Counted from the stretch's first letter, positions 2,342-64,000 are shown. The stretch is DNA of 64,000 nt from a virus (IMGVR_UViG_3300029288_000138:1-64000); one strand, 5' to 3'. A program made the numbers and translations. Notes: generated by a model from the letters alone, not told the origin.

Positions 2342-2587
2342 ATGCTAAATAAAATTCTATTACAAAACAAACTGCTAAAGTTTTTTAGTGATAATAAAAA
2401 AAGTGCTAAAGATGCTGCGGAACAATTATCTACAATTATTGATGATTATATAAAAAGTGCAACCGTAACTGTTAATGGAAATGGTGTTACTCCGCCGGGT
2501 GGGGTTGTTACAGTAGGAAGCCCGGCTACTCAAGTAAATTCTATACCAGTTATGTCAACAGTAACAGGAAATGGAAAAATAACATAA
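2342..2587 (+). CDS. Hypothetical virion protein
   Basis: 81 aa, Gly/Thr/Val-rich C-terminus, TAATG-coupled to the next gene. Confidence 0.55.
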   Translation: MLNKILLQNKLLKFFSDNKKSAKDAAEQLSTIIDDYIKSATVTVNGNGVTPPGGVVTVGSPATQVNSIPVMSTVTGNGKIT

Positions 2588-3015
2588 TGCCAACCAAATA
2601 TAATTATACAGGATCAAATGATGATACTGCAGTATCTAAGATAAACTTTAATGAAAGGGGCATTGGATTTTTTTACCCATTTGGTTCAAATAATAAAGCA
2701 TATGATGTAACCCGTACAACTATCGATAAGGTAACATCAAATATAAGATTGTTATTGCAAACTGAAAAAGGAGAAAGAGTAAATTCTCCGGAGTTTGGGG
2801 TGTCATTAAGGAAATATATGTTTGAGCAACAATTTAATGATGCTAAACAAATGATAGAAGGCCAACTAAAAAATGACATATATAAATGAATACCAGAAGT
2901 GAATATTGATGAATTAACAATAAATTTTGATAATAACACAGTGCAAATATTTATGTTATTTTCATTAAAAGAGGACGCTGATATCAATCAAAAAATGAGT
3001 GTAATAATTAAATAA
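2587..3015 (+). CDS. Baseplate wedge protein, gp25/GPW-like (142 aa, TGA=Trp)
   Basis: NIRLLLQTEKGERVNSPEFG gp25 motif; in-frame TGA 2887-2889 gives K-W-IPEVNI; ends TAA 3013-3015. Confidence 0.8.
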
Positions 3016-3029
3016 GTAAGAGAACAGTA

Positions 3030-4952
3030 ATGGCAGATATAGTCAAAAAAAATATAAGTTATCTGGGTAGAGATTTTTCCGAATTAAAAAGTAATTTGCA
3101 AATATTTGCAAAAACATATTTTCAGGATACATACCAAGACTTTAATGAAGCTGATGCTGGAACAATGTTATTAGAGTTGGCTGCTTATGTTGGTGATGTT
3201 CTTGGATTTCATATGGATAGTCAATTTAAAGGATTATATGCAGACTCAATTACTCAACGAAAACATGCCATAAATTATGCTAACATGTTTGGTTATAAAG
3301 TAAAACCAACTATAGCATCTACTACTAAATTAGATGTATATATAGTTGTACCAGCAACTGGTTCCGCAGATAATAAAGTTCCGGATTATAAATACTGCCC
3401 AATTCTTAAAGCTGGAGCAACAGCAGTTGCAGATACAAGCCCTAGAATAAATTTTGAAACATTGACAGATATAAATTTTCTTGTTAATACTTCACAAAGT
3501 CTAGATGACGACGGAAGAGATGAAACAATATATGAAGTGGATGAATCTGGAATTGCTACCAAATTTTTACTACGAAAAAGAGTTGATATAATAGGCAGCG
3601 AAACAAGAACGTTTAATCAAACAATAACATCTCCAGAAAAGTATTTAAAAATTCAATTACCATCAAATGATATAACAGAAATAATATCAGTTTTAGATTC
3701 TGATGGAAATAATTGATATGAAGTGGAATGTTTGGCCCAAGATACTATTTTTATTGAACAGCAAAATATAGATGAAAATGATACAATATTTTCATCTGAT
3801 AGTGGGTCTGTGCCATATTTACTAAAACTAAAAAAGGTTCCAAAAAGATTTGAAGTAAAAGTCGATGAAAATAATTTAACATATTTACTATTTGGTTCTG
3901 GAATTATAAATTCCAATGATGAAGAAATAATACCGAATCCTAGATTGGTTGGATCCCCGACTCCAATTGGCGGAAACTATTATGATTATACAGTAGACCC
4001 AGAGAATTTCTTAAAAACAAAATCTTTTGGAGAAGCCCCCGCTAATACAACTTTGACTATAACATATAGAGCTGGTGGGGGAATACAATCAAACGTTCAA
4101 GCTGGTTCAATCAATTCTATAGAGAATGTAGATTTAGAATTTCCTGTTAGTACCTCATTATTAAATCAAAAAGATATTAGTGATATAATAGCATCAGTTG
4201 GGTGTATAAATAATAGTAATGCTACAGGCGGCCGGGGAGAAGAAAGTGTTGATTCAATAAAATATAATGCAATTGCGAATTATAAGTCTCAGAAAAGGTG
4301 TGTTACAAAAGAAGATTATATTGTAAGAGCATATTCATTACCAGCTAAATTCGGTAGTATAGCTAAAATATATGTAGAAAAAGATGATTTGACAAAAGAA
4401 ATACAACAAAGTCCAAATAGTAATCCATTTGCAATTAATATGTATTTATTGGCATATAATTCTGATAATAATTTAGTCAATGCTTCTACTGCAGTTAAAA
4501 ACAACCTCAAAACATATATAAACCAATACAGGATGCTTACGGATAATATTAATATCATAGATGGTACAATTATTAATATCGGAATAATGTTTGAAATTAT
4601 TGTATATAATAGTGAAAATAAGAATGAAGTATTATTAAGATGTATAGATGCAATTACTAATTATTTTGATATAAGTAATTGAAGTTTTAATCAACCTATA
4701 GTATATGCTGAATTATATAGATTAATTATGAATGTCAAAGGAGTTCAGGCAATTCCTATTGATTATAATATTTCCGATGGTAAAAGAGCTGGATTAAATA
4801 TTATATGTAAGAGCGGAGGATTATATTCAAATACCTATGTTGATTTAGAGGGGCTAACAATTAATGGTATAATATATCCACCGAGAACTATATCAATATT
4901 TGAACTAAAAACACCACAAATAGATATTGAAGGTCGAGCAATCAGTGGATAA
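3030..4952 (+). CDS. Baseplate wedge subunit, gp6/baseplate-J-like (640 aa, TGA=Trp)
   Basis: Three track ORFs share one frame and join through TGA at 3714 (DGNN-W-YEV) and 4680 (DISN-W-SFNQPI); RDFSELKSNL and RCVTKEDY motifs. Confidence 0.85.
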
Positions 4953-4972
4953 AGAATAGGGTAAAATAAATT

Positions 4973-6067
4973 ATGTATTATAGATTTAAATTAGAAAAAG
5001 ATACTTTTATAACTAGCCAAAGTGAAGAAGGAAATTTTGGACGAGATCCAATATTAGAAGTTGGAAAAATTGTTGATAATAGTGTAATATATCCAATTAG
5101 AAGTCTTATTAAATTTAATGTTGATGATATTAATAATAAAATTAGTACCAATAAAATAAATAGTTCATCAGTATTTGAACTGAGTATGTATGAATGTTTA
5201 AATGAAAATATATACTATGATAATTTTTGAATTGATGCATTATTAATATCTAGATCATGAACAGAAGGAACGGGATCATTAGCAGAAAAATCAACTGGTA
5301 GTGCATGTAATTGAATAAGTGCATCAAATGATGATTGCTGATCATTGCCTGGCGGTGACTATTTAACTGTTGCTTCCGCATCGCAATATTATGCTACATC
5401 ATCTGGTGATATAACTATGGATATTACTGAGTTAGTTGGGTATTTAACTGCAAGTGTTTATCCAAATTGTGGGCTAATAATAAAACTAAGAGATGAAATA
5501 GGAGATCAATTCTTAACCTCAGGATCTCAGTATTTTATTGTTGATGGAAATGATGTATTTTATTTGACTGAGCGTAGTGCTCCAAATGAAAATTTTAATA
5601 GAAAAATGTTTTATGGCAAAGATACTCATACAATATATTATCCAACCATTGTTGCAAAATGAAATGATACATTAACAACTGCATCAATTAGTGCATCTAG
5701 TACATGGCAAGACTATTGCGTATCTTTACGGGAACCAAAGGAAGAATATATTAGTAGTGAAAGAATAAGGTTTGAATTATTTGGTAGATTAAAATATCCT
5801 GTAATGACATATTCAACTAGATCATTAGAAAATCTATCTAGTACTGTATTGACAGATTTAACATATGAAGTAAAAGACGTCTCAGATTATGGTAGAGCAA
5901 TATTACCATATAGTGTGTATACTAGTTGTAGTTATGATGCTAGCAAGAATTATTTCAATATTGATATGTCTGCATTGCCTGTTAATAGAACATATGAACT
6001 TAGTGTAAAACACGAATTCTTAGGGACAACTAAGATATATAAACTACATAAATTTAGAATAGTATAA
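4973..6067 (+). CDS. Putative virion structural protein (364 aa, TGA=Trp)
   Basis: Track ORFs 4973, 5345 and 5804 are in one frame separated only by TGA; ends TAA. Confidence 0.7.
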
Positions 6068-6069
6068 CA

Positions 6070-6573
6070 ATGGAAATTATTAATAAAAAAAATACTAAAT
6101 CTGATTCAATACTAATGCCATTTAGTGCTCCGAATTATTCTGAATTAAATAATGAAATAAATCAAAAATATGATGTAGCAATCACAGAATTGATATCAGA
6201 AGATGCAAACATTTCTGATGATGCGGTACAAAATAATAATGATAAAATAGTAATATTCTTATCAGATTATGATTCAATCAAATTGATAATGAGTACAGAT
6301 CAATTATATAATTTCTATAAAACCGTTGAAAAAGATATTCCAGATTTATACTTTATTGAATCTGGTTCTTTATCATATCTTCAATTTGAAAATTCTCATG
6401 CGTTATTAATTACTAATAATGAACATGAAATAGCGAGTGATCTAAAATATCCCAATTTAAATGAATTATCATTTAATTCTGGCAGAACAATTAGATTAAG
6501 TATTATACCAAAAACAAAAAATTATAAGGATAAATATATATTTCGACAGATTATAGAAGTATCTAGAATATAA
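6070..6573 (+). CDS. Hypothetical protein
   Basis: 167 aa ORF in the operon. Confidence 0.6.
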   Translation: MEIINKKNTKSDSILMPFSAPNYSELNNEINQKYDVAITELISEDANISDDAVQNNNDKIVIFLSDYDSIKLIMSTDQLYNFYKTVEKDIPDLYFIESGSLSYLQFENSHALLITNNEHEIASDLKYPNLNELSFNSGRTIRLSIIPKTKNYKDKYIFRQIIEVSRI

Positions 6574-6609
6574 TAAATGACAATGAACTATATTATAAAG
6601 GATAAATAA

Positions 6610-7893
6610 ATGGAAAAAATAATTGATCCCATCCCAGATCCCATCCCAGATCCCATCCCAGATCCCATCCCAGATCCAAAGCAATTAATATTTTATAAAC
6701 CAATCATTAGTGAAATTATTCCTACTAGTAGAAGTTTTATCAAATTTAAATTAAATTGATCAGAATATCAACCAGGAGTACTTCTCGCATATGTTTTATC
6801 AATAAAATTATTACTTTTTGTATATAATATAGACGGGAGTATTATGGTTACAAAGGAATTAGATGCGAGATCTTTTTATGAAAATAATAGTTGGCCTGAT
6901 AGTGTTGATATTGATTTAGGAATAAATTTAGTTGATAATACGCAAATAATATGTGATTGCAAATTATACTTAGATATATATGATAGGGCTACAGAACAAA
7001 CACAACAAAGTACTGATAGTAACCCGGTAATATTTAATTTTATTTTTTCTGATACTACAGAAGAAGATATTTCACCAGAATTGCCCCCAGATGGAATAAC
7101 AGTATATAATTCCAAAGTCGGGTTTGAATTATTAGTTGACAAAGATGGGTATTTAAATTTAACCTATAAATATTTTCTGACTAAAGAAAACGGAGACATT
7201 GATTTTTCTAATATTCAAACTATTTCTGTAAAGTCTAAATTTCCAATAGAGATAAACGATGAGAATAACATACTCTTTGGAATTGATGATAATAGTAACA
7301 AACTATTTTTAAGAATATCTAATACAGCATATCCATTAAATAATATTGATATTTCATTTAGTGATGATGTATTGCAGTCAAACGGTGTAAGTTTTGCAAC
7401 GTTAGCTGAATATATTAGAAATTCAAATACTGCATTTTTTAATACTAGCTTTATAGTGGATAATTTTTATAACAAAATTCCGCAACCATTAATTGGTGGA
7501 ATAAGCAACAGAGATAGTAGAAGTATGATAAATAAATCTACAATCAATCTGGAATATAGTAATATTAATTTAGCAAACTTATATAGTAGTAGCTATATAG
7601 ACAACGGATTAAACGACTTTAATTTAACTAAATTTAGATATTACAATAAATATCTTAGTTATAATGATACAATTACAGACTTATCAGAAGATGATATATT
7701 TAATTCAGAATTTGATATAAAACAAAATTTAATGATAGACTATGATTTTAGTAATCTTAGTTCAAATGAGGATTATGTAATAGATAATTCAGGTAATGGT
7801 AACCATGGTGTATTTATTGGCGATATGGATATTGCAGTAACAGATAGCGGGTTTAGTATATCACAAAAGAACTTACCTATAGTAAAAATTTAA
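6610..7893 (+). CDS. Hypothetical virion protein (427 aa, TGA=Trp) with N-terminal DPIP repeat
   Basis: ATG 6610 is in frame with ORF 6844 through one TGA; the C-terminal DNSGNGNHG motif resembles LamG-type domain ends. Confidence 0.65.
6625..6678 (+). repeat. 12-nt tandem repeat GATCCCATCCCA x4.5 (Asp-Pro-Ile-Pro)
   Basis: Perfect copies at 6625, 6637, 6649, 6661 plus a partial copy. Confidence 0.95.
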
Positions 7894-7902
7894 CAAGGCA
7901 CA

Positions 7903-10900
7903 ATGATGAAAACAGTATCTATGGATGATGGAACAGTCACTAGTAATTTAAAATTAACAGAAATTGATGCTTCTAAACCGTCTTACTATGATGGTGTTGT
8001 CAGGGTAACTTTTTATGATTCTAATAATAATGTAGTATGTTCAAATAATTTAAATTCTGATGAATTTATATATATAAGTAAATCAATTTACATAAATTTA
8101 AATTTGCATGTTTCAAGAATACCCGATATTGCTCTGCCCCCCAATAGTAAATACAAAGTTATTGTATCATTTGAACGAGATATATATTCTAATATCTTTG
8201 TTAAAGAAATATCTCCATCTAAAACTGAAGTTAGAATTGGATTAAATAATAATATAGCAGATTCTTTCTGGATTAAATGAGCATATTCACCCGAAATTTT
8301 ATTAAATAATGCTCAAAGAGTAATTAGAATACATGATGAAAAATTCAGGATTATCAATGTTATTCCAGACTATTCAAAGTATAAAATAGAAGTTGAACAA
8401 GTTAAAAATAATATTGAAAATCTTAAAATAGAATTGAATAATATGTATGTTGACCAGATTGATTTAAATCAAGTGAGCAGCAAGCAAAAAGAATTAAGTG
8501 ATTTAGAAACTTCATTAATTGATAATAGTTTATTAAATAAAGTAACTTTTATATTAAAGTTATCATCTACTATTAATAGTGAAATTGAATTACCAAGTGC
8601 AAATTGTTTTCTATCAAATGAAATTACATTAGATCAAACAATCAATGACGTATACGTTTACTCAGAAGAAATAAGTGAAAGTAAAGTAGTTAAATTAAGT
8701 GCTGATCCTAGAGTTGGATCAAATTTCTATGATACTACAAAATGATATAATTACAATACTCTTGTTAGTTCTGGCAGTGCATCATTTTTAGCAGAATTAA
8801 CTCAAAGCTTATTTTCTGGCATTAGTGATTTATGTATAGATTTTTCTAATTTTTCTAATCACACCTTTTTTGGGAGTGCAATAGAAAAAGTTAATAATGC
8901 CTCATTAAAAATTAAGAATATACAAATTTACAAAGACTTGATGAGTAATCAAACTTCATCCGGAGCAAGTACTACAAGCCAAAGTTATTCTAATGCAATA
9001 CATAGTTTAGAAAATGAAATGACTCAGTATGAAAGATATGTTTATACAAAATCTGCATCATATGCATGGCCAAAAACATCTGATAGTGGATCAGATTACA
9101 ATTATTCATATAGTTCGTCTATGGTTCAATCATGATACTCAGAACAATATAATTCTGCTAGTTATTACGATAGAAATAATAAAAATTATTTAGTTAATTT
9201 TCTGCCTGAAAATGTTATAATTGAAGATGATTCTAAATATATGACAAAAATTATACATATATGAGGAGAATTTTTTGATTATATTAAGAATTATATAGAT
9301 CAAATACAATACTTATACAATTTTGATTATGACTGAATCAATGCAGTTCCGCCTGAATTACTACCTTTATATGCTAGCAATTTCCAATGAGAATTATTGG
9401 AAGGATTTGATTCTGAAGAATTAATGCCATATTTAAAGGGATTACAACAAGCATCTGGTAGTACTCCTTTAAAAGATATAACTAGAGAAAAATGACTAAG
9501 ACTATTATCAAGTGTTCCATATTTAAACAAAATTAGAGGAACTCGTAGATCAGTTGACGCTCTAATGAATATATATGGTATCCCAAATTCAATTATTAGT
9601 ATAAAAGAATATGGTGGAAGTAAATCAACTGGCAGTGATTACATAGAAGATAATACTAATATCTATTGCTTAGATTTTTACGGGGGAGAAACAATATATC
9701 CACCATCTAATGTATATGGATATATGTCAGGCAGTGATTTTACATATGAAGTGCGATATAATACTACTAGTAGTGCAAATTTAGCACTTTTTGGTAATCA
9801 AGGATTTAATGTTACACTAGAAACTTCTAGTAATAGTTCATATGGTTCTGCCAGTTTATTTATAAATAATGTTTCAGTAATGTCTATAACTGGTAGTGGA
9901 AATATTTCATTTTTTGATGGTGACTGGCATAACATTATAGTGCAAAAAAGTGGTACTACATTATATTTAAAACACAAAAAATACAAAGAGAATCAATTAT
10001 TCTATAACAATGTGGTTAGTTATACATTGTTAGATGCTGATAATCAGTATATTGACAGTGGTTCTTCGGCCGGCGGATATTTGTATTTTGGCGGCATCGA
10101 TACTAACGGTAGTTATTCGGGGTCACTGCAAGAAATTAGGTTGTGAAATAAATATCTAGCAGAAAATGAAATAGATCATCATAGTTATGATTTCAATTCA
10201 TTGGCAGTTAATAATCCAAATGATGTTAGTGATTATCTAGTAGCACACTATAAGTTATCAGAAAATAAAGATTTAAATGCAAGTCAATATGTTAATGATT
10301 TTTCATGGCCGCCAAAATATGATGCAAGTGCAAGTTTATTTACTGGCAATCAATATAAAAATATAACATTGTCTGCTAGAACGTATTTTGAAATGTTTAC
10401 TCTGGAAGGGCATAGTGATAATAAAATTAATATAGGTTATGTATCAGAAAGTGTTGAGGAAAATTTAAACAGAGTAGATTTAGTATTTTCTCCAGTGCAA
10501 GCAATGAATAGTGATATTTTAACTGAATTTGCCTTATTTGATTTTAACAATCCTATAGGCAATCCAATGGATATGTATGAAGCAAATTATTCAACATTAG
10601 ATATATGAAAAAATTATTATTTTAAGAAATATGAAGGCAATTACAATTTCTATGCATATTTAAAATTTATAGAAAGTTTCGATAAATCTGTATTTAGAAT
10701 TGTATCTCAAGTAATTCCGGAAAGGGCAAACTTAGTATCTGGACTTACTATTGGATCCCACATGTTGGAGAGAAATAAATACAAATGGCAAAAGTCAAGA
10801 ATATTTGATTGCACTTATAGTTGTTCTGTAGACAATATTTCGGAAGATGTTTTTGATTGGAATGTTGATAAAGATAGTAATAAAGAATTTCAAATTTATC

Positions 10901-11223
10901 CAAATTCCTCAATTCAATACAGTTCTAGTACAGAAAGGTATATTGAAGCTGGTAGATTATTTAATACCGGTAGTTTTAGTTCTATTTTTAGTTATATAGA
11001 ATGCTTATTCCCAGCATCAGATTTTTCAAGTATACTAACTGATTTTATTGCTGCATCATATGAACCAATAAGTTCAACTGCTAGTGGTAGTTCTTATGAT
11101 CCTATTTATAAGCAATTAAAATATGCAACATCTGTTGGTACACAAAATACTGCTGCTACAGATTACGCCGGTGCACCTTGGGAAGTATCTGAATCATCTG
11201 CTACTATTATTCGAGTAGTATAA
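7903..11223 (+). CDS. Large virion/baseplate protein with LamG-like domain (1106 aa, TGA=Trp)
   Basis: Six track ORFs share one frame, joined by about nine TGA; GTRRSVDALMNIYGIP...IKEYGG motif; DGDWHNIIV...LQEIRL LamG-like segment. Confidence 0.75.
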
Positions 11224-11260: not shown

Positions 11261-11289
11261 TTGTTTTCTAACCATTTTAATATTAAATT
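11261..11289 (+). promoter_or_regulatory. Early sigma70-type promoter TTGTTT-17nt-TAAATT (class representative)
   Basis: The same -35/-10 pair with a 17-nt spacer starts at 11261, 19744, 21236, 23388, 28942, 31322, 42711, 43181, 47303, 51374, 54990, 56949, 58866, 61139 and 61360 (TTGCTT), usually followed by ATAGAGTTATTTAAAA. Confidence 0.85.
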
Positions 11290-11323
11290 ATAGTGTTAAT
11301 TAAAATAAAGAAGGAAAAAGAAA

Positions 11324-11455
11324 ATGGAAAAAGTAAAGATTCGGGAAATTAAAAAATTGATTGAGAAGGCCATTAATTTACAAGAAGAAATAATTGATGG
11401 TAAAATTATTGATATTGACAATGAAGATTTTATTTCTAAATTAGAAAGGAAATAA
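11324..11455 (+). CDS. Small hypothetical protein
   Basis: ATG after RBS directly downstream of the early promoter; TAA stop. Confidence 0.5.
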   Translation: MEKVKIREIKKLIEKAINLQEEIIDGKIIDIDNEDFISKLERK

Positions 11456-11456
11456 C

Positions 11457-11660
11457 ATGGAAATTCAAGAATTTGAAGAAAAACTTCAAGAAATCAGAAG
11501 TAAAAATGGTTGGATAATTAAATTAGAATTTAATGGAATTTGGGTATTTACAATAATCGATAAAAGAACTGGAAATATTTCAGCAAGTACAGGTGCAACA
11601 GGGCTTGAATCACTTTTATATGTATTGGAAATGCCATTTGACAAAAGCCCCTGGCAGTAA
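11457..11660 (+). CDS. Hypothetical protein
   Basis: 67 aa; Trp codons are TGG. Confidence 0.55.
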   Translation: MEIQEFEEKLQEIRSKNGWIIKLEFNGIWVFTIIDKRTGNISASTGATGLESLLYVLEMPFDKSPWQ

Positions 11661-11674
11661 GCAAAGGAGATAAT

Positions 11675-12820: not shown

Positions 12821-12838
12821 TAAATTGGGAGGTCTAGA

Positions 12839-13117: not shown

Positions 13118-13136
13118 AATAAATGATTAGGAGTAT

Positions 13137-13634: not shown

Positions 13635-13654
13635 GGAAACCTATAGGAGTAAAA

Positions 13655-46237: not shown

Positions 46238-46238
46238 T

Positions 46239-52864: not shown

Positions 52865-52874
52865 GGAGTTAAAA

Positions 52875-53228: not shown

Positions 53229-53243
53229 TAACAGGAGTTAGAT

Positions 53244-53747: not shown

Positions 53748-53749
53748 TT

Positions 53750-54049: not shown

Positions 54050-54217
54050 AAAAAATAAGTTTTTCTCTATTTTTTTACCATTTTTTTATATTTATATATG
54101 TAAAACTCAAATCAATTAGTGAAGTGCTATCTTAAAACAGCATTTGAGTATATAGTCTATATAAATTCATTAGTTGATTGCGGGAAATAAAAATATAACC
54201 CAAAAAGGAGAATCATT

Positions 54218-54982
54218 ATGAAAAAGAATGACGTTAGTGTTTCATTGGCAATTAATGGTAATTTGCTAAAAGAAAAAGTTATTAATAGTATTCCAACATT
54301 TCATCTATTAGATGACACAGAATTTGCATTAGTTATAGACAATATGTCTAGAACCAAATATGCAGTGGATGTAATAATAGATGGAAAAAATCAATCTCAT
54401 AGATTAATACTAAGAGAAGGTGAACATGTTAATCTAGAAAGATGGTTTGAGGATAATAGGAAATTCAAATTTGTTACATATGATGCTTTAAAGAATAATC
54501 CAGGTATTGCTAATAATGGAAACATTACTTTAAAGTTTTATAAAGAACGAGTAGATCAACCTGTAATTACTTATACTCGATGAACTCCACAATATTATAC
54601 TAATACTGGAACTATATATCCATTGTCTTGGCCATCAACTGGTGATTTCGTTTCATGCGCCACCGCTGGCAACAAAACGCGTTGTGTTGCCAGCAACACA
54701 ACGGGTGGTTCTATTCAATTAGTTAATAATGCACTATCAGCTGATACTATAAAAACAGGCAAAACTGAAATGGGCAATATTTCTAATCAAGAATTCAATA
54801 CAGATTATTTTTCTACTTTTGAATATTTCCCTTCATTTGAAATTAACATGAAATTATTACCAGCAGAGGTTGCTCATTACGAATATAAAACAACTAATGA
54901 TACAAGAGTATACTGCTCAGAATGCGGTAGAAAAATAAAAAATGGTTGAAAATATTGTGCTGGTTGCGGAAAAAAAGTATAA
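54218..54982 (+). CDS. Hypothetical protein with C-terminal double zinc ribbon (254 aa, TGA=Trp)
   Basis: TGA 54581 and 54947 read through give CSECGRKIKNG-W-KYCAGCG. Confidence 0.7.
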
Positions 54983-55059
54983 ATTTATCTTGTTTTCTAT
55001 TCAGTATTATATTAAATTATAGAGTTATTTAAAATTAATTAGTTATTTGAAAATAGAAA

Positions 55060-55385
55060 TGGGAGGTGGCGAGAATCGTATGGTTCATGTTTGTTCATTA
55101 ATCAGGCCTACGACGTTAGTCACCCCCTAGGTTTTTTGAAAATTTTGTCTCTCATATCAAATAGTATATGAGGAAACAGCATTGTCAAAAAAGCGAATGA
55201 GTACACCCGCAAGGCCTCTGGAGTCGCCAAGCGTCTTTAAGTCTTGCGGGAAAGATTTTTGAAAATTGAATATGCTCGGCGGAATAGATACTTGTATACG
55301 GGTTACTATTTCAGAACTCACAAGTCTACTGCATAAGTTGAGATAGATTTATCTTAGACAAGTCGATGGGTGGTCGATCCGAGCA
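55060..55385 (+). ncRNA. Array of unclassified structured RNAs
   Basis: Stems GGGAGGTGGC/GTCACCCCC, CTCATAT/ATATGAG, CCCGCAAG/CTTGCGGG and TGCTCGG/CCGAGCA, separated by TTTGAAAAT spacers. Confidence 0.55.
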
Positions 55386-55390
55386 GAAAA

Positions 55391-55509
55391 GGCTACTGTG
55401 GCGGAATAAATAGCATGCTTGGCAGACGCACGGCAAGATGTGTGGTGGGAAGCCAGATTAACCTTTAACATACATACATCATACGGGTTGAAATCCCGTC
55501 AGTAGCCCA
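55391..55509 (+). ncRNA. tRNA-like RNA B
   Basis: Same acceptor stem as RNA A; expanded D loop; irregular long anticodon-side stem; T arm ACGGG-TTGAAAT-CCCGT. Confidence 0.7.
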
Positions 55510-55534
55510 AAGTTTTTTAATGAAATTGTTATAT

Positions 55535-55581
55535 AGGTCACAGAGTTTATTTTTTCCCTTCTTTTCTCTGTGACCTTTTTT
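55535..55581 (+). terminator. Intrinsic terminator
   Basis: AGGTCACAGAG/CTCTGTGACCT followed by a T tract. Confidence 0.8.
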
Positions 55582-55613
55582 ATTTTACCAAACTAAAATA
55601 TTTATATTTGTAT

Positions 55614-56126
55614 ATGATAAAATTCAAAAAAATAGTACTAGAACTATCGTTAAAAGATAGAGCAGAAGATATAGCTCAAATAGTTCATAGTGGTCAAAAT
55701 AGACGTTCGTCTGGTGCACCATACATAATTCATCCTGTTAGAGTTCAATTACTAGCAAAACGATTTGGATTGGGAAACGATGAACAATTGATTGCAATAT
55801 TACATGATACATATGAAGATAGTAATAACAAATCTTTGGTAATTGCAAATATTAACAATAAATTTGGTAATGAAATTGCTAAAAATGTTATTGCATTGTC
55901 ACACGAACGAGGTACAGATTATACTAATTATGTATATGAATTATCCAAAAAATACCCAAAAGCATTCAATGTTAAACTATTGGATATGTACGATAATTTA
56001 ATTGATAATCCGTCAAGTTCGCAAAAAATAAAATATTCTGAAACATTACTATTTTTAATAAATCATGGAGTAAGAATAAATAATGGTATAAAAAACGATT
56101 TAATGAAAATCATAGGGAGAAAATAA
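55614..56126 (+). CDS. HD-domain (p)ppGpp hydrolase-like protein (Mesh1/SpoT-HD)
   Basis: AQIVHSGQNRRSSGAPYIIHP, ILHDTYED, VKLLDMYDN motifs. Confidence 0.85.
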   Translation: MIKFKKIVLELSLKDRAEDIAQIVHSGQNRRSSGAPYIIHPVRVQLLAKRFGLGNDEQLIAILHDTYEDSNNKSLVIANINNKFGNEIAKNVIALSHERGTDYTNYVYELSKKYPKAFNVKLLDMYDNLIDNPSSSQKIKYSETLLFLINHGVRINNGIKNDLMKIIGRK

Positions 56127-56127
56127 A

Positions 56128-56367
56128 ATGGTAAAATTAAAAGATTTAACAGAAGAACAAAAAATTAGAAAAGTTATAAGAAATATGATAAAAGAAGTAA
56201 TTGATTTTGATCCTACTGGCTCTTGAAAAAAATTAGATGATTCTGGTGAAGAAATTAAAAGTATAAATAAACCAGAAGAACTAGCGGAATTGCAAGCAGA
56301 TGAAGATGCTAAGAATAAAGTATCAAAAGTAAAAGTAGAAAAGTCTGAAACAGAAAAGAAAGTATAA
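56128..56367 (+). CDS. Small hypothetical protein (one TGA)
   Basis: MVKLKDL...; TAATG-coupled to the next gene. Confidence 0.55.
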
Positions 56368-56945
56368 TGCGAAAAATAGTTATATATCCTGGTAGATTTC
56401 AACCGCCTCATATCGGACACTTAAAAACTTATAATCTACTATGTAAACATTTTGGGAAAGATAATGTTTATATCTGTACTGCGAACAAGATTAAATATCC
56501 AGAAAGCATATTTGATTTTGAAACTAGAAAATACTTACTAACTAGAATTCTAAAAATATCTCAATCAAACATAATACAAGTAAGTAGTCCATATACACCA
56601 GAGCAATTTTTTAAAGGTTCGGGTATAACACCAGATGAAGTAATACTATTTGCTGCTTTAGGTAATAAGGATAAAGATAGAATCAAATTGAATGTTACAT
56701 TAAAAAATGGAAATCTAGGTTATTATATTAGTCCACCGAAAGGCAAAGAAGTCTATTACAATGCGAATAAGCACGGTTATATTCTATTCTATAAAGATAT
56801 TATGAGTGCTGTTAATCTAAGAAAAGCATTATTAGATATGAATATTGGTAATGATGTAAAAGTTAAATTATGGAATGAAATGACTGGTTTAGATGAAAAA
56901 GAATTAAATTTTGTTATGCAAAAAGTTAATGAAACTTTAAAATAA
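56367..56945 (+). CDS. HxGH cytidylyltransferase-like protein
   Basis: YPGRFQPPHIGH, MSAVNLR motifs. Confidence 0.7.
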   Translation: MRKIVIYPGRFQPPHIGHLKTYNLLCKHFGKDNVYICTANKIKYPESIFDFETRKYLLTRILKISQSNIIQVSSPYTPEQFFKGSGITPDEVILFAALGNKDKDRIKLNVTLKNGNLGYYISPPKGKEVYYNANKHGYILFYKDIMSAVNLRKALLDMNIGNDVKVKLWNEMTGLDEKELNFVMQKVNETLK

Positions 56946-57013
56946 TTCTTGTTTTCTATTCATTTTTATATTAAATTATAGAGTTATTTAAAAGTAAAGA
57001 TAGGTTTTATAAT

Positions 57014-57214
57014 ATGCCCAATACTATAGAAACTTATACTAACATGATAATTGATTTGATTCCTTTTGCAGAAACAAAAGAATCTAGGGATTCATTAAAT
57101 CAATTAATTGAAATATTTAAAAATAAATTTAAAAAAGAACCGAATTTAATTAAATATACCTTTGAAATATCTAAAGCAATATATAAATTTAAATCTAATT
57201 TTTATGAATTTTAA
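57014..57214 (+). CDS. Hypothetical protein
   Basis: After the early promoter at 56949. Confidence 0.5.
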   Translation: MPNTIETYTNMIIDLIPFAETKESRDSLNQLIEIFKNKFKKEPNLIKYTFEISKAIYKFKSNFYEF

Positions 57215-57237
57215 AACAAAATAAAGGCTAAAACAAA

Positions 57238-58326
57238 ATGGGCGGAGCATACGGTCATATAAATCATCCTTACGAAAATTTAGATTTAACTTTCGGTGAT
57301 CTAAAAAAGATCATACAGAAAGCATTATGCGCAAAGTTAAAAAATGCTAAAGAAAAAATGGATGGCATAAATTGTTTTGTTAGTTTTATAGATAATAAAA
57401 TTGTGTATTCTAGAAACAAAGGCAATCTAATAAACAATGGCATTTCTAGTACAGAATTAATTGAACTGTTTGATAAAAATAAAATAGAAAAATTAACCAG
57501 AAGTATTAAATTATTTACAGATGAAATAGAGTTAATATTTAAGAATACACCTAAGATTTGTAATATCTTTTGCAATGGTAAATATTGGTTAAACGTTGAA
57601 ATTTTAAATACTAATAATATTAATGTAATAGACTATGAAAACAATTATATAGTAATTCATGATATATTAAAAGTAGAAAACGGGAAATTAATATGTACTA
57701 ATAATAATAAAAAGCGTCAATGTATGAAATCTATCAAATCATATCAACCTATATATGAATATTATAAACCAATTGATATTGATAGAAAAATAAAATTGAA
57801 TAAAATTACTGATAATAGTTTTTTATTGAGATTAAATAATGAAATGCAGAATTACGATTTAACTAACAAGAATACAATAAAAGACTATTGGGATAGAAAA
57901 GTAGACTGGTATGTAAATAGATATAAAGTAACACCAGATACTATATTTTTGGATATGAGTAAATCGGAAATAAAAAAGTTTATTCTATATCCTCTATACA
58001 AATTGTTTATTGACTTGGGCGATATAGTAATTAGTAATGCAACTAATTATTTGTCAACTGATAGTAAGCACGACTTTACTGGTAGGATTGTTAATAAAAT
58101 AGATAAACTTAACCCAGAAATCAATCCAGATCTATTATCTGAAAAATTAAAAGAAAAATTTAATACATATAAACATGAATTAATTAGTAGTAATATATTT
58201 AATAATAATCCCAATTTTAATCCAATAGAAGGGATTGTATTTGAATATAAAAATAAAAAGTATAAATTAACTGGTTTATTTTCAATAATAAATCAAATTT
58301 TAGGAATTAATCGATATGCCAGATAA
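57238..58326 (+). CDS. Conserved large-phage protein with ligase-like KxDG and EG motifs
   Basis: MGGAYGHINHPY, EKMDG, IEGIVF...KLTG. Confidence 0.55.
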   Translation: MGGAYGHINHPYENLDLTFGDLKKIIQKALCAKLKNAKEKMDGINCFVSFIDNKIVYSRNKGNLINNGISSTELIELFDKNKIEKLTRSIKLFTDEIELIFKNTPKICNIFCNGKYWLNVEILNTNNINVIDYENNYIVIHDILKVENGKLICTNNNKKRQCMKSIKSYQPIYEYYKPIDIDRKIKLNKITDNSFLLRLNNEMQNYDLTNKNTIKDYWDRKVDWYVNRYKVTPDTIFLDMSKSEIKKFILYPLYKLFIDLGDIVISNATNYLSTDSKHDFTGRIVNKIDKLNPEINPDLLSEKLKEKFNTYKHELISSNIFNNNPNFNPIEGIVFEYKNKKYKLTGLFSIINQILGINRYAR

Positions 58327-58636
58327 AATAAAATTACGAAATATTATCAAAGAAGAATATGGTTCTATCTATCAATTAGATAACCCATATGATCCAGAGG
58401 TATTAATTCGAGGCTTTGGTCGGATGAGATGGAGTCAATTAAAAAAGCATATAGAAAATAAAATTGAGGATGAAATTATAACTATGGCCAAAAGAGGTGA
58501 TTATTCGGCGCTATCATCATACTTGTTTGCTCCTCATAACTCATTCAAATTATTCGTAGATGCAGCTAATGATATAAATAAAGAATTAAATAGCCCTACT
58601 ATAAAACGGAAAATCACCCTATTGAAAGGAAAATAG
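58316..58636 (+). CDS. Hypothetical protein
   Basis: 106 aa. Confidence 0.55.
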   Translation: MPDKIKLRNIIKEEYGSIYQLDNPYDPEVLIRGFGRMRWSQLKKHIENKIEDEIITMAKRGDYSALSSYLFAPHNSFKLFVDAANDINKELNSPTIKRKITLLKGK

Positions 58637-58638
58637 TA

Positions 58639-58848
58639 ATGGCAATAAAATTAAAAAAACTATTAGAAGAAGATATTAATATTCCAGTAAATATTGGTGA
58701 TACAATACTAGTTGGTAAATTTAGAAATAAACCAATTGTTATTAAAACCATTGAATATGATGAACAAGGGTTACCAATAATCAATGGCAGAAAGGGCGTT
58801 TCATTTAAAATAAAAGAAAGAAAATTACCAATTAACATTTTTCAATAA
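58639..58848 (+). CDS. Conserved hypothetical protein
   Basis: IPVNIGDTILVGKFRNK...GLPIING. Confidence 0.6.
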   Translation: MAIKLKKLLEEDINIPVNIGDTILVGKFRNKPIVIKTIEYDEQGLPIINGRKGVSFKIKERKLPINIFQ

Positions 58849-58922
58849 AATTTTCTATTTTTCTCTTGTTTTTTAGATATTGATTCATTAAATTATATTG
58901 TTATTTAAATATAGAAATAGAT

Positions 58923-59061
58923 TTGATGGACAAAAAGAGTTCCTATAATACAACTTGCTAAGTAAATTTACTCTTCGTCCATCAATATTTATAATCTAAT
59001 TAGGCAAAAGAAGTTCCTATATTTTTTTACTGCAATAAAAGACACTACTTCTCGCCTAATT
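58923..59061 (+). ncRNA. Two tandem related RNA hairpin motifs in a 5' leader
   Basis: Units 58923-58985 and 58998-59061 share AAAAG(A)AGTTCCTATA and a compensatory outer stem. Confidence 0.6.
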
Positions 59062-59083
59062 TAATTTTTATGGGGGAAACAAA

Positions 59084-61108
59084 ATGTTATCATCAATTAA
59101 ACTTTTCAATTCAGTAATTATCAAAGAACATCAAAAAGAACTAAATCCATCAGATTTAAAATTTGCTAATATCTTTAAAGAAACTTATAAGTATGGATTT
59201 ATATTTAGTCCTGAAGTTGTATCTGAATATTCATTTAATGACTTAAAACAAATAACCGCTGAAATGATCAGTGTTGGTATATTCAAAAGTTCAGAACAAA
59301 TGAATAAAACATTTCAGACTTGGACTAAAATGAGAGATTCTGATATTGAAACTCTTGTTATTGAACAATTAATTCATTATATGACAACCTATGGGTTTGA
59401 AGAACTAGGAATTTATAGTGAAGACACTGTTTATTTTCCTACAAAAGATTTGGATATACCTGATATTGATGTTGAGAAATTTAATTTCACTGTTATTAAA
59501 GGTATCACTGAAATAGAACTAGCAAAAAGAACTCTAAAATTTGTTAATTCCGGAATTGCATTAAAGGAAGAAACAATAAAAGATGTTTTCGATGTTATTT
59601 CGACCCTGCATACTAACAGTATAATTTCAAACGAAGAGATTGAAACAGTTAAGAATAAAGAATTAAAAATAAAAGTGTATGAACACTTAAATATTGTTCC
59701 AAAGAATGCATCAGAATTTTTAAGAGTAATTATTAATAAAGCAACTGGAAATGCACTATTAATCAAATCTAAATCAGTTATTGAGCAATTAAAAAAATTA
59801 GGAAATGATGATGTATTTAAATATTTTAGTTTATATAAACTATTGTATAAAGATTTTAATGCATTATCAAAATCATTTTTTAGATTTAAACCATTGTTTT
59901 TAGCATTAAAAAGAACTATTTTTGATTATAAAACAAAAGAAATCAATAAAATCATTAATAAAATTAGAAAAGATGCTAATTTCTTACATACACCAATGTC
60001 AGTCGATTTTTTAAATTCTATTACAGAAAAACTCAAAAGCGGTGAAGAAATTAATGAACAAGAATTAATGAAAACCCTAGATCGTGTAAATGTATTTAGA
60101 AAAGTTAAATTACTAAACGCACTGGATTTTAGATCACAAGATGTTAAATCTATTCTATATAGAATAAGAAATAGCAAAGCTTTTGTTACAGATTTTGAAT
60201 CTAATTATCTAGAAAATAAAAGTGTTCAATTAGAATATAATAAAATTAAAAACATCATTCTATCTTCAATCGCAAAAACAGTTGAAAAAAACCTTAGTGG
60301 AAAAAAAGTATACATTCCTGATAACATTTTTTATGCGATTCCCAATTCTGAAAAGCAATTTGTAGGAAATTTTCCAAACGGAACTTATATTAAAATTGAA
60401 AAAGATGATTTGCTATTTGGGGTACATTGGTTTGACTTATCTTCTTCTAATAGTGACGATCGATTACGTAATCGATTGCAATCAGATTATAATAAAAGAA
60501 TTGATTTAGATTTATCAATGTTAACTATTGCAGGCGAGAAATTGGGTTGGGATGGTGGATATAGAACAAATGACAGAACAATTTTATTTTCCGGCGATAA
60601 TACTTCTGCTCCAAGACCTAACGGAGCCAGTGAAATGTTTTATATGAATAATATAAATAATGAAGAGTTTCTTGTATATTTAAATTATTTTAATACCAAT
60701 GCCAGTCTAGATAATAAAGTTCCATATACATTATTTATTGGTAAAGAAAAAGTCAACAAAGCCTTTGACAGACAGTATATGATTAATCCTAACAATATTA
60801 TATGTCAACTTCCGTGTCAAATAAGTTCTGGGCAAAAACAAACTATAATTGGATTTATATCAATCAATAAAAATGAATCTAGATTTTATATAACAAATTA
60901 TTCACTTGGAAATAATAAAACCGTTAGAAATAATAAGTATAGTAAAAAAGCAAATGAGTTTTTATCGGCATATTATAAATCTAATACATATCTAGATGAT
61001 GTATTAGCAATTGCTAAAATTAACATAGTTAATGATGCAAAAGATGCTGATATAGATTTATCAGTAAATAATATCAGTAAAGATACATTTTTATCAATTT
61101 TCATGTAA
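59084..61108 (+). CDS. Large hypothetical protein with TerD-like C-terminal domain
   Basis: FGVHW...IDLDLS...GWDG...FSGDNTSAP...GASE pattern. Confidence 0.6.
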   Translation: MLSSIKLFNSVIIKEHQKELNPSDLKFANIFKETYKYGFIFSPEVVSEYSFNDLKQITAEMISVGIFKSSEQMNKTFQTWTKMRDSDIETLVIEQLIHYMTTYGFEELGIYSEDTVYFPTKDLDIPDIDVEKFNFTVIKGITEIELAKRTLKFVNSGIALKEETIKDVFDVISTLHTNSIISNEEIETVKNKELKIKVYEHLNIVPKNASEFLRVIINKATGNALLIKSKSVIEQLKKLGNDDVFKYFSLYKLLYKDFNALSKSFFRFKPLFLALKRTIFDYKTKEINKIINKIRKDANFLHTPMSVDFLNSITEKLKSGEEINEQELMKTLDRVNVFRKVKLLNALDFRSQDVKSILYRIRNSKAFVTDFESNYLENKSVQLEYNKIKNIILSSIAKTVEKNLSGKKVYIPDNIFYAIPNSEKQFVGNFPNGTYIKIEKDDLLFGVHWFDLSSSNSDDRLRNRLQSDYNKRIDLDLSMLTIAGEKLGWDGGYRTNDRTILFSGDNTSAPRPNGASEMFYMNNINNEEFLVYLNYFNTNASLDNKVPYTLFIGKEKVNKAFDRQYMINPNNIICQLPCQISSGQKQTIIGFISINKNESRFYITNYSLGNNKTVRNNKYSKKANEFLSAYYKSNTYLDDVLAIAKINIVNDAKDADIDLSVNNISKDTFLSIFM

Positions 61109-61310
61109 AATTATTTTTAATTACTATATAGATTTCTCTTGTTTTCTATTCATTTTAATATTAAATTATAGAGTTATTTAAAATAAAGATTAAAAAATGA
61201 TAAAGCTTAAAGGCTACCTATCAATTACAATGCTATTCTAGACAAGGTATTGTAATATGGTGTTGCTTGAGCTCGGCAATAGAAAAGCCTGAAACCGAAG
61301 GGCTCACGTT

Positions 61311-61339
61311 TGGGGACTAGAAATAGTCCCCATTTTTTT
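61311..61339 (+). terminator. Intrinsic terminator
   Basis: TGGGGACTA/TAGTCCCCA followed by T7. Confidence 0.85.
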
Positions 61340-61426
61340 GATATTTTTTATTTTTTCTCTTGCTTTCTATAGAATTTAATATTAAATTATAGAGTTATTT
61401 AAAATTAAAGAAAGGAGAGTAAAAAA

Positions 61427-61522
61427 ATGCGGGCGCAAAATAGAAAAACCAATAACAAGTCAACGGCGGAAGCCGTTGACTCCGGTGCTGGGTTATACCG
61501 GACGAAAGGATGTGCAAAATGA
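61427..61522 (+). CDS. Short ORF ending at TGA
   Basis: AAGGAGAG RBS; ATGA overlap with the next gene. Confidence 0.45.
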   Translation: MRAQNRKTNNKSTAEAVDSGAGLYRTKGCAK

Positions 61523-61833
61523 GGGTGGACGCCGGAGTTAGCCATTTAAATGATTCTGACTATTTCCAAATGTCAGACAGGTGCTATATTATTGATAAAA
61601 TGATTCAGGAAATTCTAGAAACACACCCGGTATATTTTGGTGATGAAAGAATCAGAAAAGTAATCCAAAATTCCGCTGAAAACCTAAGAACAGGTTTTCA
61701 GCTAGCCGATGGGATTGGCTTTACGCTCCAAGAATCAAAAAAAAAACCCCCAACCAGACAACCGCTCAAGGCGTTAAATCAACGCAAGGGTTATGTCGTA
61801 TTTGCAACAAATTTCTATCTTGGTTTGGCCTGA
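61519..61833 (+). CDS. Hypothetical protein ending at TGA
   Basis: ATGA-coupled start; TGATG-coupled end. Confidence 0.5.
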   Translation: MRVDAGVSHLNDSDYFQMSDRCYIIDKMIQEILETHPVYFGDERIRKVIQNSAENLRTGFQLADGIGFTLQESKKKPPTRQPLKALNQRKGYVVFATNFYLGLA

Positions 61834-62265: not shown

Positions 62266-62294
62266 AAAAAGAAGTGATATATCACTTCTTTTTT
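62266..62294. terminator. Bidirectional intrinsic terminator
   Basis: AAAAAGAAGTGAT-ATCACTTCTTTTT palindrome. Confidence 0.75.
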
Positions 62295-62433
62295 CATGTT
62301 TAAACAATCTAATTAGTTTTTCAAAAATTTTATAATTACAAATTCGATTAGAACAAGTCTGACTTGTATAAGATGGATCAACTAAAATAAGTTTTTCTTT
62401 ATTTTTTATCATTTTTTATATTTATATATAGAT

Positions 62434-62826
62434 ATGATTAAACTAAGCAACATATTAACAGAATCTTTGACAAAACAAATGATAGTAAATATCGCCAATG
62501 AATTATTTAAATATTACAATGCAAATCAACTAGAATTAAAATTTACTAATGATAAAACTTTGTTAGGAAACTTTGATTTTGATAATAATATAGTTTATGT
62601 TAACCCGAATTATAATAAAGAAGAAATTACTATTACTATATTGCATGAAATAAAGCACCTTTTACAAAAGAAATCAATAGGCAAGTCTAAATTTATTCAC
62701 AATTGTGAAATAGAATTGAGTAACGGTAAAGATCAAAAAAGTGTTTCATATGAAATAGAAGCAGAAAAATGAGCAAATTCTGAATATAACAAGATTTGAA
62801 AAAATAAACTTTTTGGAGAGAAATAA
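62434..62826 (+). CDS. HExxH metallopeptidase-like protein (130 aa, TGA=Trp)
   Basis: TILHEIKH, YEIEAEK-W-A; late motif upstream. Confidence 0.65.
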
Positions 62827-63585
62827 ATGTTGTTTTCTGGAAAAATATTAAAACAAGGCGATGCCGGTGTAGAAATAGAAGAGTTGCAAATACGACTGGC
62901 CGGGTTTGGTGGTACAATATGAAGTGGAAATTTTGGCCCAAATACAAAAAAACAAGTTATGCAATTTCAAAAAGATTATATTGGGGATGGTGTTCCTAGT
63001 GGTGTAGTTGATTTAAAAACTTTAAGGAATATTATTACATTTACAGAAGAATTTAATATTGATTTTAATAAATTAAAATGCCCGTGTGGAAAATGTAATG
63101 GGTTTGGTCTTGGAAAATATAAAAACGTGTATATTCCATCTAAGCCAAAAATAGAGGCATATTATATGTATGAATATCCTGGAATACATAAGGCTATTTT
63201 ATATGCTTATAAGGCATGTATGTTTTATGCTAAAAAATATGGGTTTCCATTACCAGTAATTAATTGTGGATATAGATGTAGTGCAAATAATATTCAAAAT
63301 AAAAGAAGCAGTACAAATCATTGTGGTAAAGCAATAGATATAGACTTACCAATGGTAAAGAAAACAGAAAAAGATAATCAAATAGATACGGATAGATGCA
63401 ATACTTTCAGAACTAAAATGATAGAATTTGGAAATTTCCAAATTGGTTGATCTAATAGTAATCAAAAATCATTAGAACCCGAAAATATTGCCCCAACTTG
63501 GATTCATATGGATATTAGAAATTATGAAAGTAAATATTTATTAGATAGATTCTTTGTTAAATCAAATGATGAATTAAATAAATAG
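62827..63585 (+). CDS. Endolysin: peptidoglycan-binding domain plus peptidase M15A-like domain (252 aa, TGA=Trp)
   Basis: LKQGDAG...GNFGPNT...QFQ (PG-binding); GYRC...STNHCGKAIDI...WIHMD; TGA at 62920 and 63448; ends TAG. Confidence 0.85.
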
Positions 63586-63593
63586 CAAAAAAT

Positions 63594-64000
63594 ATGTTCT
63601 CAAAAATACTTAAATGACTTATCAAAAATCCAATAGTACTAGTTATTATCGGAGTCATGGCCCTTTTAGTAATTGTCAATGCTAAAATAAATGCATTAAA
63701 CAATGATATTGAATATTGAAGAAACCAAGCCGCTTTAACAGATACTATTACAGTAATTGATTCCACTATCAATATTAAGCTGGCTCAAACTGTCAGAGAA
63801 ATAGAGTCTGAAAATAAAAAATTAAATAAATTACTCAAAGAAGAAAAAGATAAAATTAAAGCCCAAGTTGAAATCAATGCACTATTATTAGATAGCATCA
63901 ACAATTTAAACACATCAGCTGGTAGTATAGTAATAGTAAATAACGATAGTGTTAGAACTAGATTATTCAAATATAACGCCAACGCTTTTAAATTGAGTGG
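63594..64000 (+). CDS. Putative inner-membrane spanin-like protein (partial, TGA=Trp)
   Basis: N-terminal TM segment followed by a coiled coil, directly after the endolysin; two TGA; open at the window edge. Confidence 0.55.

Follow-up and report, generated by a model that had tools for sequence, protein, structure and literature searches.

Evidence for two genetic codes in a T4-like phage genome and for a predicted suppressor tRNA split by a group-I-type intron

Introduction

The DNA analyzed here, referred to as the window, comprises bases 1 to 64000 of the IMG/VR viral contig IMGVR_UViG_3300029288_000138 (83,617 bp; GC content, 29.4%). In many of its genes, the codon TGA lies in frame. We consider it probable that this T4-like phage uses two genetic codes in one genome, with early genes written in the standard code and with recoded genes read by a tRNA(UCA) from a split gene, an arrangement that would time the late functions. 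Searches with Pfam and PHROGs placed the contig among the T4-type phages through its core genes, namely, those for the major capsid protein (MCP), portal, large terminase, prohead protease, and baseplate wedge. The Pfam matches were Gp23 (1.7e-73), Portal_T4 (3.9e-60), Terminase_6N, Peptidase_S77, and GPW_gp25. The closest cultured MCPs, those of Flavobacterium phage immuto and Microcystis phage Mel-JY01, are 47 to 49% identical (best, 48.7%). All convincing genes of the contig are on the + strand.

Results

In-frame TGA and coding density

An earlier note on this DNA, made from the sequence alone, had claimed that TGA is recoded to tryptophan and had pointed to coding density as a check. Genes were defined by greedy tiling of open reading frames (ORFs) on the + strand and subsequent curation, giving 104 genes on the contig and 78 in the window. 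With + strand tiling, the coding coverage of the contig rose from 73.9% (table 11) to 90.4% (table 4). The window contains 81 in-frame TGA codons versus 143 TGG codons, and TGA is held by 24 of the 78 curated genes; across all 104 genes, the counts are 135 and 169. The 42 TGA-containing genes of the contig (13,902 codons) carry the 135 TGA codons in frame with no TAA and no TAG, while their off-frames hold 674 to 903 TAA and TAG likewise by the hundreds. These genes are thus open frames rather than decayed genes or pseudogenes. TerL, the portal, gp25, and the primase are full length in code 4 only.

The base following TGA was also recorded. It is A after 49% of sense TGA codons and after 32% of TGG codons (all contig genes; chi-square P = 0.009), which may indicate selection on the following base in competition with RF2.

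Amino acid encoded by TGA

Five independent lines of evidence point to tryptophan. For TerL, in which every Trp codon (15 of 15) is TGA, 120 database homologues were aligned. At eight of the 15 sites, 117 or more of the 120 homologues have W; four sites fell on Y/F columns and three on variable columns, and T4 gp17 has W at four of the sites. To avoid bias, TGA was then masked as X, and all proteins were compared by tblastn with 80 standard-code relatives. W predominated at 17 of the 35 TGA sites and at 13 of the 27 TGG sites, Gly predominated at 1 TGA site, and the two profiles matched. The earlier note had named Gly, Cys, or unconserved homologue columns as an outcome that would speak against its claim; in the masked comparison, W was as frequent at TGA sites as at TGG sites.

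Repeats within the 2146-aa fibre agree with this assignment. Of the copies of the repeat G-x-IGGW-x-I, eight use TGA and three use TGG; TGA stands at 36629 and 39914 and TGG at 36797, exactly as had been claimed. A second repeat, Y-I-x-W-[DN]-G-S-N-L, has TGA in three copies. When three recoded TerL genes were compared, 11 columns were W in all of them, and 3 of these 11 mixed TGA with TGG. The share of Trp codons is also similar, at 1.35% (TGA plus TGG) in TGA genes versus 1.42% (TGG) in TGG-only genes.

Other sites proposed in the earlier note were recovered in the primase (GH-w-HCFVCG, TGA at 24930), the zinc ribbon (NG-w-KYC, TGA at 54947), and the endolysin (TGA at 62920 and 63448). A proposed DUF559 protein with the motif RF-W was only partly borne out: YRF-w is present in the NUMOD3 protein, but Pfam gave no DUF559 match. 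Apart from this, all positions and counts in the earlier note were confirmed.

Split tRNA gene

According to ARAGORN and Rfam, the contig carries 22 tRNAs, including tRNA-Trp(CCA); 21 lie in an array, and a tRNA-Cys lies at 23787. Neither program reported a tRNA(UCA) as such. A Trp-like tRNA gene split into two exons was found at 50635 to 50937. The 5' exon (50635 to 50668) consists of the acceptor strand AGGTGGG, the D arm, and the stem strand ACGGT followed by CUU. The 3' exon consists of CAAA, ACCGT, a second hairpin with the loop CUCCAAA, the T arm, CCCACCU, and G73. When U50668 was joined to C50880 in silico, a 93-nt cloverleaf was obtained with the anticodon loop CUUCAAA (UCA) and an extra arm. 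Deleting the first arm and the insert in silico left an ordinary tRNA-Trp(CCA). After predicted splicing, this tRNA is the likely decoder of TGA. Since the intron interrupts the anticodon, the gene is invisible to standard finders.

Another tRNA-like gene lies at 43440 to 43542 (Rfam tRNA, 35.7 bits). Its acceptor, D, and T arms are intact, and a 38-nt insert replaces the anticodon arm. ARAGORN called it Phe(gaa) with a 14-nt intron; TCA is absent.

Group-I-type intron

The insert folds with a z score of -3.4, and its minimum-free-energy fold shows P2, P4-P6, P8, and P9. P2 is capped by GAAA, P8 holds the receptor CCUAAG...UAUGG, and P9 carries a second GAAA loop. P3 (GAGAAT/ATTCTC) and P7 (GAGCA/TGCTC) were drawn by eye. 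As in group I introns, the 5' exon ends in U (U50668), the intron ends in G (G50879), and the helices include a P3/P7 pseudoknot.

By blastn, the P4-P5 core (31 nt, 97% identical) matched a gap between two "capsid protein" coding sequences (CDS) of Pelagibacter phage HTVC120P, as well as a deep-sea relative. The HTVC120P gap can be aligned with the intron over the core as well as at the 3' end, ...ATAGTAG(T/G)ATG, and splice sites in the Rfam register restore one capsid ORF. Because this homologous site restores the capsid frame, the 3' splice site of the intron is well supported. The gap in the capsid genes of HTVC120P and the deep-sea relative appears to be a small group I intron, and the intron in the split tRNA is predicted to be self-splicing. 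The capsid genes of HTVC120P (MH598807.1, 19433 to 20607) and of the deep-sea relative (KT997847.1) are each annotated as two CDS.

Recurrence of the split tRNA

An exact-pattern search for the two arms gave no match. When the intron 3' end plus CAAA was used as the pattern, the same gene was found in six further contigs. One is IMGVR_UViG_3300045988_179403 (G004; 103,544 bp, rated complete), in which this TerL has no match; the other five are metagenome contigs, one of them from a human gut assembly. Three sequence variants of the split tRNA were distinguished, all of which keep the loops CUUCAAA and CUCCAAA and G73. The stems differ by compensatory changes in the first arm (ACGGT/ACCGT, CGGGT/ACCTG, and GCAGT/ACTGT), in the second arm (CGGGC/GCCTG, ATACGT/ACGTAT, and CCGT/GCGG), and likewise in the acceptor. 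Under code 4, coding density rises from 78.6% to 95.0% in G004 and from 54% to 89% in the contig L164; four shorter loci of the L155 type gain only 3 to 9 points, and in one of these, L162, code 15 beats code 4. The covariation and these gains suggest a conserved RNA tied to TGA recoding.

G004 itself has two arms. Its + strand virion genes are TGA-rich (ORFs of 3733, 2074, and 1709 aa), and its - strand genes are almost all TGG only. In layout and size, G004 resembles crAss-like phages.

Distribution of the two codes

TGA and TGG are distributed unevenly among genes. The heterogeneity statistic G was 249.7, whereas 10,000 permutations averaged 109 and never exceeded 157.7, and 24 runs were observed along the genome versus 43.5 expected. 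A set of 42 genes (7,376 codons) has 105 TGG codons and no internal TGA, whereas about 72 would be expected at the rate of the TGA genes. It includes genes for DUF932, metallophosphoesterase, RNA ligase, NUDIX, CCA-adding enzyme, RtcB, RlaP, SpoU methylase, cytidylyltransferases, and HD proteins. The accessory enzymes named in the earlier note did prove to use TGG only (RNA ligase, 6; phosphoesterase, 6; RtcB, 5; NUDIX, 3; no TGA in any). In the TGA genes, TGA makes up about half to all of the Trp codons. These genes encode baseplate, fibre, terminase, portal, and lysis proteins and some replication proteins, so the claim that TGA lies mainly in virion, replication, and lysis genes stood for baseplate, fibre, packaging, and lysis and for part of replication, but the major capsid gene is TGA-free. 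An excess of Trp-free genes as a "code-neutral" class was considered and rejected (19 observed, 19.4 expected).

The blocks coincide with promoter-like motifs. A sigma-70-like early motif, TTGTTT-N14-TATTAAATTATA, gave 17 matches versus 2.9 expected, and its close matches are all intergenic and on the + strand. It heads nearly all TGG-only blocks, the exceptions being a PKD gene and gp23. All eight copies of the motif TATATTTATA are on the + strand, and seven of them lie in noncoding DNA. The motif precedes TGA genes, and one copy lies 4 nt before the split tRNA. The 9-mer ATATTTATA lies 4 to 22 nt upstream of several TGA-containing genes. TATATTTATA and ATATTTATA were read as a putative second, late-type promoter class.

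Three ORFs in early units contain TGA only within their last 2 to 16 codons: 31381 (TGATGA), 61510 (TGATGA), and 45657. TGA is probably a stop at the ends of these ORFs. No homologues of them were found among the retrieved loci.

The RNA/tRNA repair and maturation genes are in the standard code. These are the metallophosphoesterase, RNA ligase, CCA-adding enzyme, RtcB, SpoU methylase, and RlaP genes (20456 to 22553, 29367 to 30731, 31829 to 33148, 47429 to 47899, and 51595 to 52416), and they stand alongside the 22 tRNAs. This combination suggests a defence against host anticodon nucleases, and the SpoU enzyme could modify a wobble base.

Capsid exemption and relatives

The recoding of virion genes needs one qualifier: the most abundant protein, gp23, is exempt. 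The MCP genes of relatives hold 0 TGA and 10 TGG in L092 (beside TGA-rich late genes), 0 and 11 in both L095 and L096, 3 and 9 in L094, and 2 and 7 in L097. The major head protein gene of the recoded but unrelated G004 likewise contains 8 TGG and no TGA, while its portal gene has 7 TGA and 5 TGG and a tail protein gene has 35 TGA and 12 TGG. The exemption of gp23 is likely due to suppression being less efficient than normal decoding.

The closest relatives, found among Logan, ENA, and IMG/VR contigs with TerL 46 to 53% or MCP 60 to 67% identical, are also recoded. Relatives with MCP identity of at most 50% or TerL identity of at most 47% use the standard code, and recoding appears from these comparisons to be a clade trait. 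The partition also appears in L090, whose replication block (helicase and nuclease) contains 29 TGG and not one TGA and lies next to a late block rich in TGA. The TerL-based scan of viral contigs, in which W was back-translated as TGG in both peptide patterns, was blind to recoded relatives and yielded standard-code ones only; the MCP-based scan found the recoded ones. An MCP scan of genome contigs returned only distant matches in assorted metagenome-assembled genomes and no host clue. A RlaP-based search for related viral loci gave no match.

The recoded relative L097 (22% GC) encodes at 7875 to 7959 a class-II-like tRNA of 85 nt, which has a long variable arm and the anticodon GCA (Cys); the motif TTTTATATTT lies upstream. 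Weak tRNA-like matches in L097 were not interpretable as a UCA tRNA.

Other features of the contig

The coordinates of the blocks and genes are given in Table 1. An intein that includes a NUMOD3 endonuclease (Pfam Intein_splicing, 4.9e-25) brings the portal of this phage to 1160 aa; the portals of relatives are 530 to 605 aa, and the intein is absent. An Hsp20/alpha-crystallin gene with zero Trp codons lies behind the TATATTTATA motif at 41923 to 42393.

Table 1. Blocks, genes, and RNA features of the contig, with TGA and TGG counts (positions from the first base of the contig)
Feature	Position	Strand	TGA	TGG	Details
Baseplate/tail module, code 4	2587..11223	+	18	9	Also ORFs 4973-6067, 6610-7893, and 7903-11223
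gp25	2587-3015	+			Pfam GPW_gp25
gp6-like wedge	3030-4952	+			PHROG baseplate wedge
Early unit	11261..14092	+	0	19	Motif at 11261; TGG-only genes including DUF932
TGA-containing block	14315..19717	+			Includes unknown ORFs
NUMOD3 endonuclease-like gene	16995-18017	+	7	2
RuvC-like resolvase	18780-19295	+
Three early units	19744..24783	+	0	32	Motifs at 19744, 21236, and 23388; metallophosphoesterase, RNA ligase, NUDIX, tRNA-Cys
Primase and fused gp47/gp46-like nuclease-ATPase	24783..28912	+
Early unit with CCA-adding enzyme	28942..30731	+			TGG only
TATATTTATA motif, then gene	30754..31318	+	4	1
Early unit	31322..33148	+			ORF 31381-31875 ends TGA TGA
RtcB	31829-33148	+	0	5
Second-class motif and 2146-aa fibre	35328..41791	+	23	10
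Mostly standard-code region	42711..61108	+			Six early motifs; 21-tRNA array, SpoU methylase, RlaP, cytidylyltransferases, HD proteins; internal TGA in ORFs 50328-50621, 54218-54982, and 56128-56367
tRNA-Trp(CCA)	46327..46399	+			C27/A43 mismatch (4-bp anticodon stem); U11-A24 pair
Split Trp-like tRNA gene	50635..50937	+			Acceptor AGGTGGG/CCCACCT; discriminator G73
Group-I-type intron	50669..50879	+			211 nt; between U34 and C35 of the split tRNA
Two early motifs and ORF	61139..61833	+			ORF 61510-61833 ends TGA TGA
Second-class motif and lysis cassette	62417..64000	+	8	1	Counts for the whole cassette
Lysis cassette: M78-like peptidase			2	0
Lysis cassette: endolysin			2	1	Peptidoglycan-binding domain
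Lysis cassette: membrane protein	63594-64328		4	0	Runs past the window end
TerL (gp17)	65079-66674		15	0	Beyond the window
Portal (gp20) with intein	66690-70172				Beyond the window
gp21 protease	74753-75364				Beyond the window
gp23 MCP	79547-81136		0	12	Beyond the window

Discussion

Proposed mechanism

The proposed mechanism starts from the early genes behind the conserved sigma-70-like promoter, including the 22 tRNAs and the RNA-repair set, which are written in the standard code. TGA in the recoded genes would be read by a phage tRNA built on the tRNA-Trp frame, with UCA present only after removal of the intron. Host tryptophanyl-tRNA synthetase (TrpRS) would charge the split tRNA, and the spliced tRNA would be in competition with the RF2 of the host. 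Until the tRNA has accumulated, TGA genes would yield no full-length products, and packaging and lysis would thereby be held back, as in the model of Borges et al.

Several points weigh against this reading. The genes come from simple ORF tiling, and their start positions are therefore approximate. One TGATGA is internal to a late ORF, so the tandem TGAs at the ends of early ORFs are no proof of stops. The primase carries 2 TGA and 0 TGG and the gp46/47-like nuclease 2 of each; decoding must therefore begin by the time of replication and not only late, which does not fit a strictly late switch. CheckV estimated a contig completeness of about 42%, and further tRNAs, RF1, or TrpRS may sit elsewhere. 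The window's own intron was unmatched by Rfam RF00028, whether at the gathering threshold or at E values up to 10, and the HTVC120P gap scored 48.6 bits on that model (E = 3e-11), just under the 50-bit cutoff. The exact 5' splice site follows from the U/omega-G rule and the requirement for a 7-nt loop, and one base earlier also gives a 3-bp P1. Finally, the standard code of the host is inferred.

Alternative explanations

The code change could be real while its benefit is something other than late-gene timing: UGA read-through might disrupt the translation of the host or of competitors, or late genes might be guarded from expression in the wrong cell. Such disruption is the anti-defence idea proposed for crAss-like phages (Yutin et al. 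2021), and TGA in the primase implies that UGA is decoded outside the late phase as well. We nevertheless regard this explanation as unlikely, since the TGA bias is strongest in TerL and the lysis cassette, as the timing model would have it.

It is also doubtful, and more so, that UGA is read mainly by the near-cognate tRNA-Trp(CCA) at 46327 to 46399, with the split gene being a relic or having another role. The 4-bp anticodon stem and the U11-A24 pair make this tRNA a possible weak reader of UGA. Both the Hirsh A24 suppressor and the study of Kachale et al. 2023 are said to connect such features with the decoding of UGA by a CCA anticodon. The failure of Rfam to recognize the intron of the split gene points in the same direction. 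However, tRNA-Trp(CCA) lies in the early array and would read through early TGA stops too, and a TerL with all of its Trp codons as TGA would require efficient decoding. Moreover, the split UCA tRNA has been kept with compensatory changes in three lineages, in contigs that all gain density under code 4.

Could the mosaic reflect ancestry rather than regulation, with the TGG-only genes recently acquired from standard-code phages or hosts? Accessory genes are often acquired horizontally, and the MCP gene, at 36% GC, lies above the rest. The TGG-only genes nevertheless equal the TGA genes in GC content and nearly match them in relative synonymous codon usage (r = 0.988), which argues against a mosaic from recent gene transfer. 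The TGG-only blocks coincide with one promoter class, the partition is repeated in relatives such as L090, and the MCP exemption is conserved in relatives at 60 to 67% identity. This origin is therefore very improbable.

Even less credence is given to a host that itself uses code 4 and shares it with the phage, with no switch. Low GC (29%) is typical of code-4 bacteria, and most cultured code-4 phages infect Mycoplasma or Spiroplasma (Cook et al. 2024). Such a host is argued against by the 42 genes without internal TGA, by the three early ORFs with TGA only at their very ends, where it is probably a stop, by the phage's own candidate tRNA(UCA), and by the standard code of the more distant relatives. 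The endolysin carries a peptidoglycan-binding domain, indicating that the host has a wall, whereas Mollicutes are wall-less. By MCP, the nearest cultured relatives infect Flavobacterium and Microcystis. All of this indirect evidence points to a standard-code host and a code switch during infection. Weak hints to its identity are Flavobacterium among the nearest cultured hosts, the intron relative in a SAR11 phage, and the split tRNA shared with gut phages of about 100 kb.

That TGA encodes Gly (code 25, whose phage hosts are Gracilibacteria or Absconditabacteria), Cys, or selenocysteine is scarcely credible: ARAGORN tags the spliced tRNA "SeC(tca)" and three TerL TGA sites fall on G or P columns, but TGA and TGG sites have equal residue profiles, with the single Gly majority falling short of code 25, and the spliced tRNA, with its 7-bp acceptor stem, 4-bp D stem, and Trp-type G73, lacks the 8/5 fold of tRNA-Sec (8-bp acceptor, 5-bp T stem, and 6-bp D stem) and scores 22.5 bits on the Rfam tRNA-Sec model (cutoff, 47).

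Significance

The split tRNA might be a transferable recoding cassette, although we put this forward tentatively and would not expect it to hold. Such a cassette would combine a Trp frame, a UCA arm that exists only after group I splicing, and a retained arm with the CCA loop, and it would be shared by T4-like and unrelated 100-kb phages, some of them from the human gut. The retained CCA arm may keep recognition by TrpRS while the UCA arm decodes. If so, the cassette could supply the "missing" suppressor for many of the 65 to 85% of code-4 phages without a detected tRNA(UCA), and splicing could delay the code switch.

The contig bears on two questions: how phages recode without a findable suppressor tRNA and what limits recoding. 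A detectable tRNA(UCA) was reported in only 35% (Borges et al.) and 15% (Cook et al.) of code-4 phages, and noncanonical tRNAs were suspected, as they were by Yutin et al. 2021. The split tRNA offers a concrete, testable answer to the question of the missing suppressor, and the MCP exemption suggests a cost of suppression that the most highly expressed protein cannot bear. The contig also carries code 4 beyond the gut clades of earlier surveys and into a T4-type lineage. In practice, gene callers and tRNA finders misannotate such genomes.

Comparison with known systems

The recoding is of a known kind (Borges et al.; Mgcod), and the cryptic, intron-split, two-armed suppressor tRNA is the new element; in the literature, we found no paper describing an intron-split suppressor tRNA. 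The same late-gene bias of recoded codons was described by Borges et al. (10.1101/2021.08.26.457843). As in their Agate, Jade, and Sapphire clades (Borges et al. 2021/2022) and in the phages of Ivanova et al. 2014, which recode TGA to Trp in standard-code hosts, TGA stands at Trp positions, the bias is to structural, packaging, and lysis genes, the early part is standard, a homing-endonuclease-like gene is strongly recoded, and close relatives differ in code. Unlike those phages, this one belongs to a T4-type lineage (gp23, gp20, and gp17) whose nearest standard-code relatives are aquatic rather than a gut clade. It also differs in that neither RF1 nor TrpRS was found among the ORFs of at least 300 aa on the 83.6 kb, in that the candidate suppressor is intron-split and two-armed, and in that the MCP is exempt.

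CrAss-like phages likewise show dual coding, with blocks that alternate between the standard code and opal reassignment (Yutin et al. 2021; Mgcod, Pfennig et al. 2022), and Yutin et al. also reported one crAss-like MCP without alternative coding. Those phages, of a different order, have two large arms, whereas here many short, promoter-headed blocks lie on one strand.

The predicted intron resembles the group I introns of cyanobacterial tRNA-Leu(UAA) and Azoarcus tRNA-Ile in its length (about 200 to 250 nt), its place in the anticodon loop after U, its terminal G, its GAAA tetraloops, and its CCUAAG...UAUGG receptor. The insertion site matches that of tRNA-Leu(UAA), which is split between positions 34 and 35. 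Unlike those introns, it lies in a phage suppressor-type tRNA(UCA), is unscored by Rfam, and has its nearest relative in a pelagiphage capsid gene; its splicing is predicted. Catalytic RNA is also coupled to tRNA genes in recoded gut phages, where theta (HDV-like) ribozymes occur by tRNAs (10.1101/2023.06.13.544163). The theta ribozyme flanks the tRNA, whereas the intron described here interrupts the anticodon itself.

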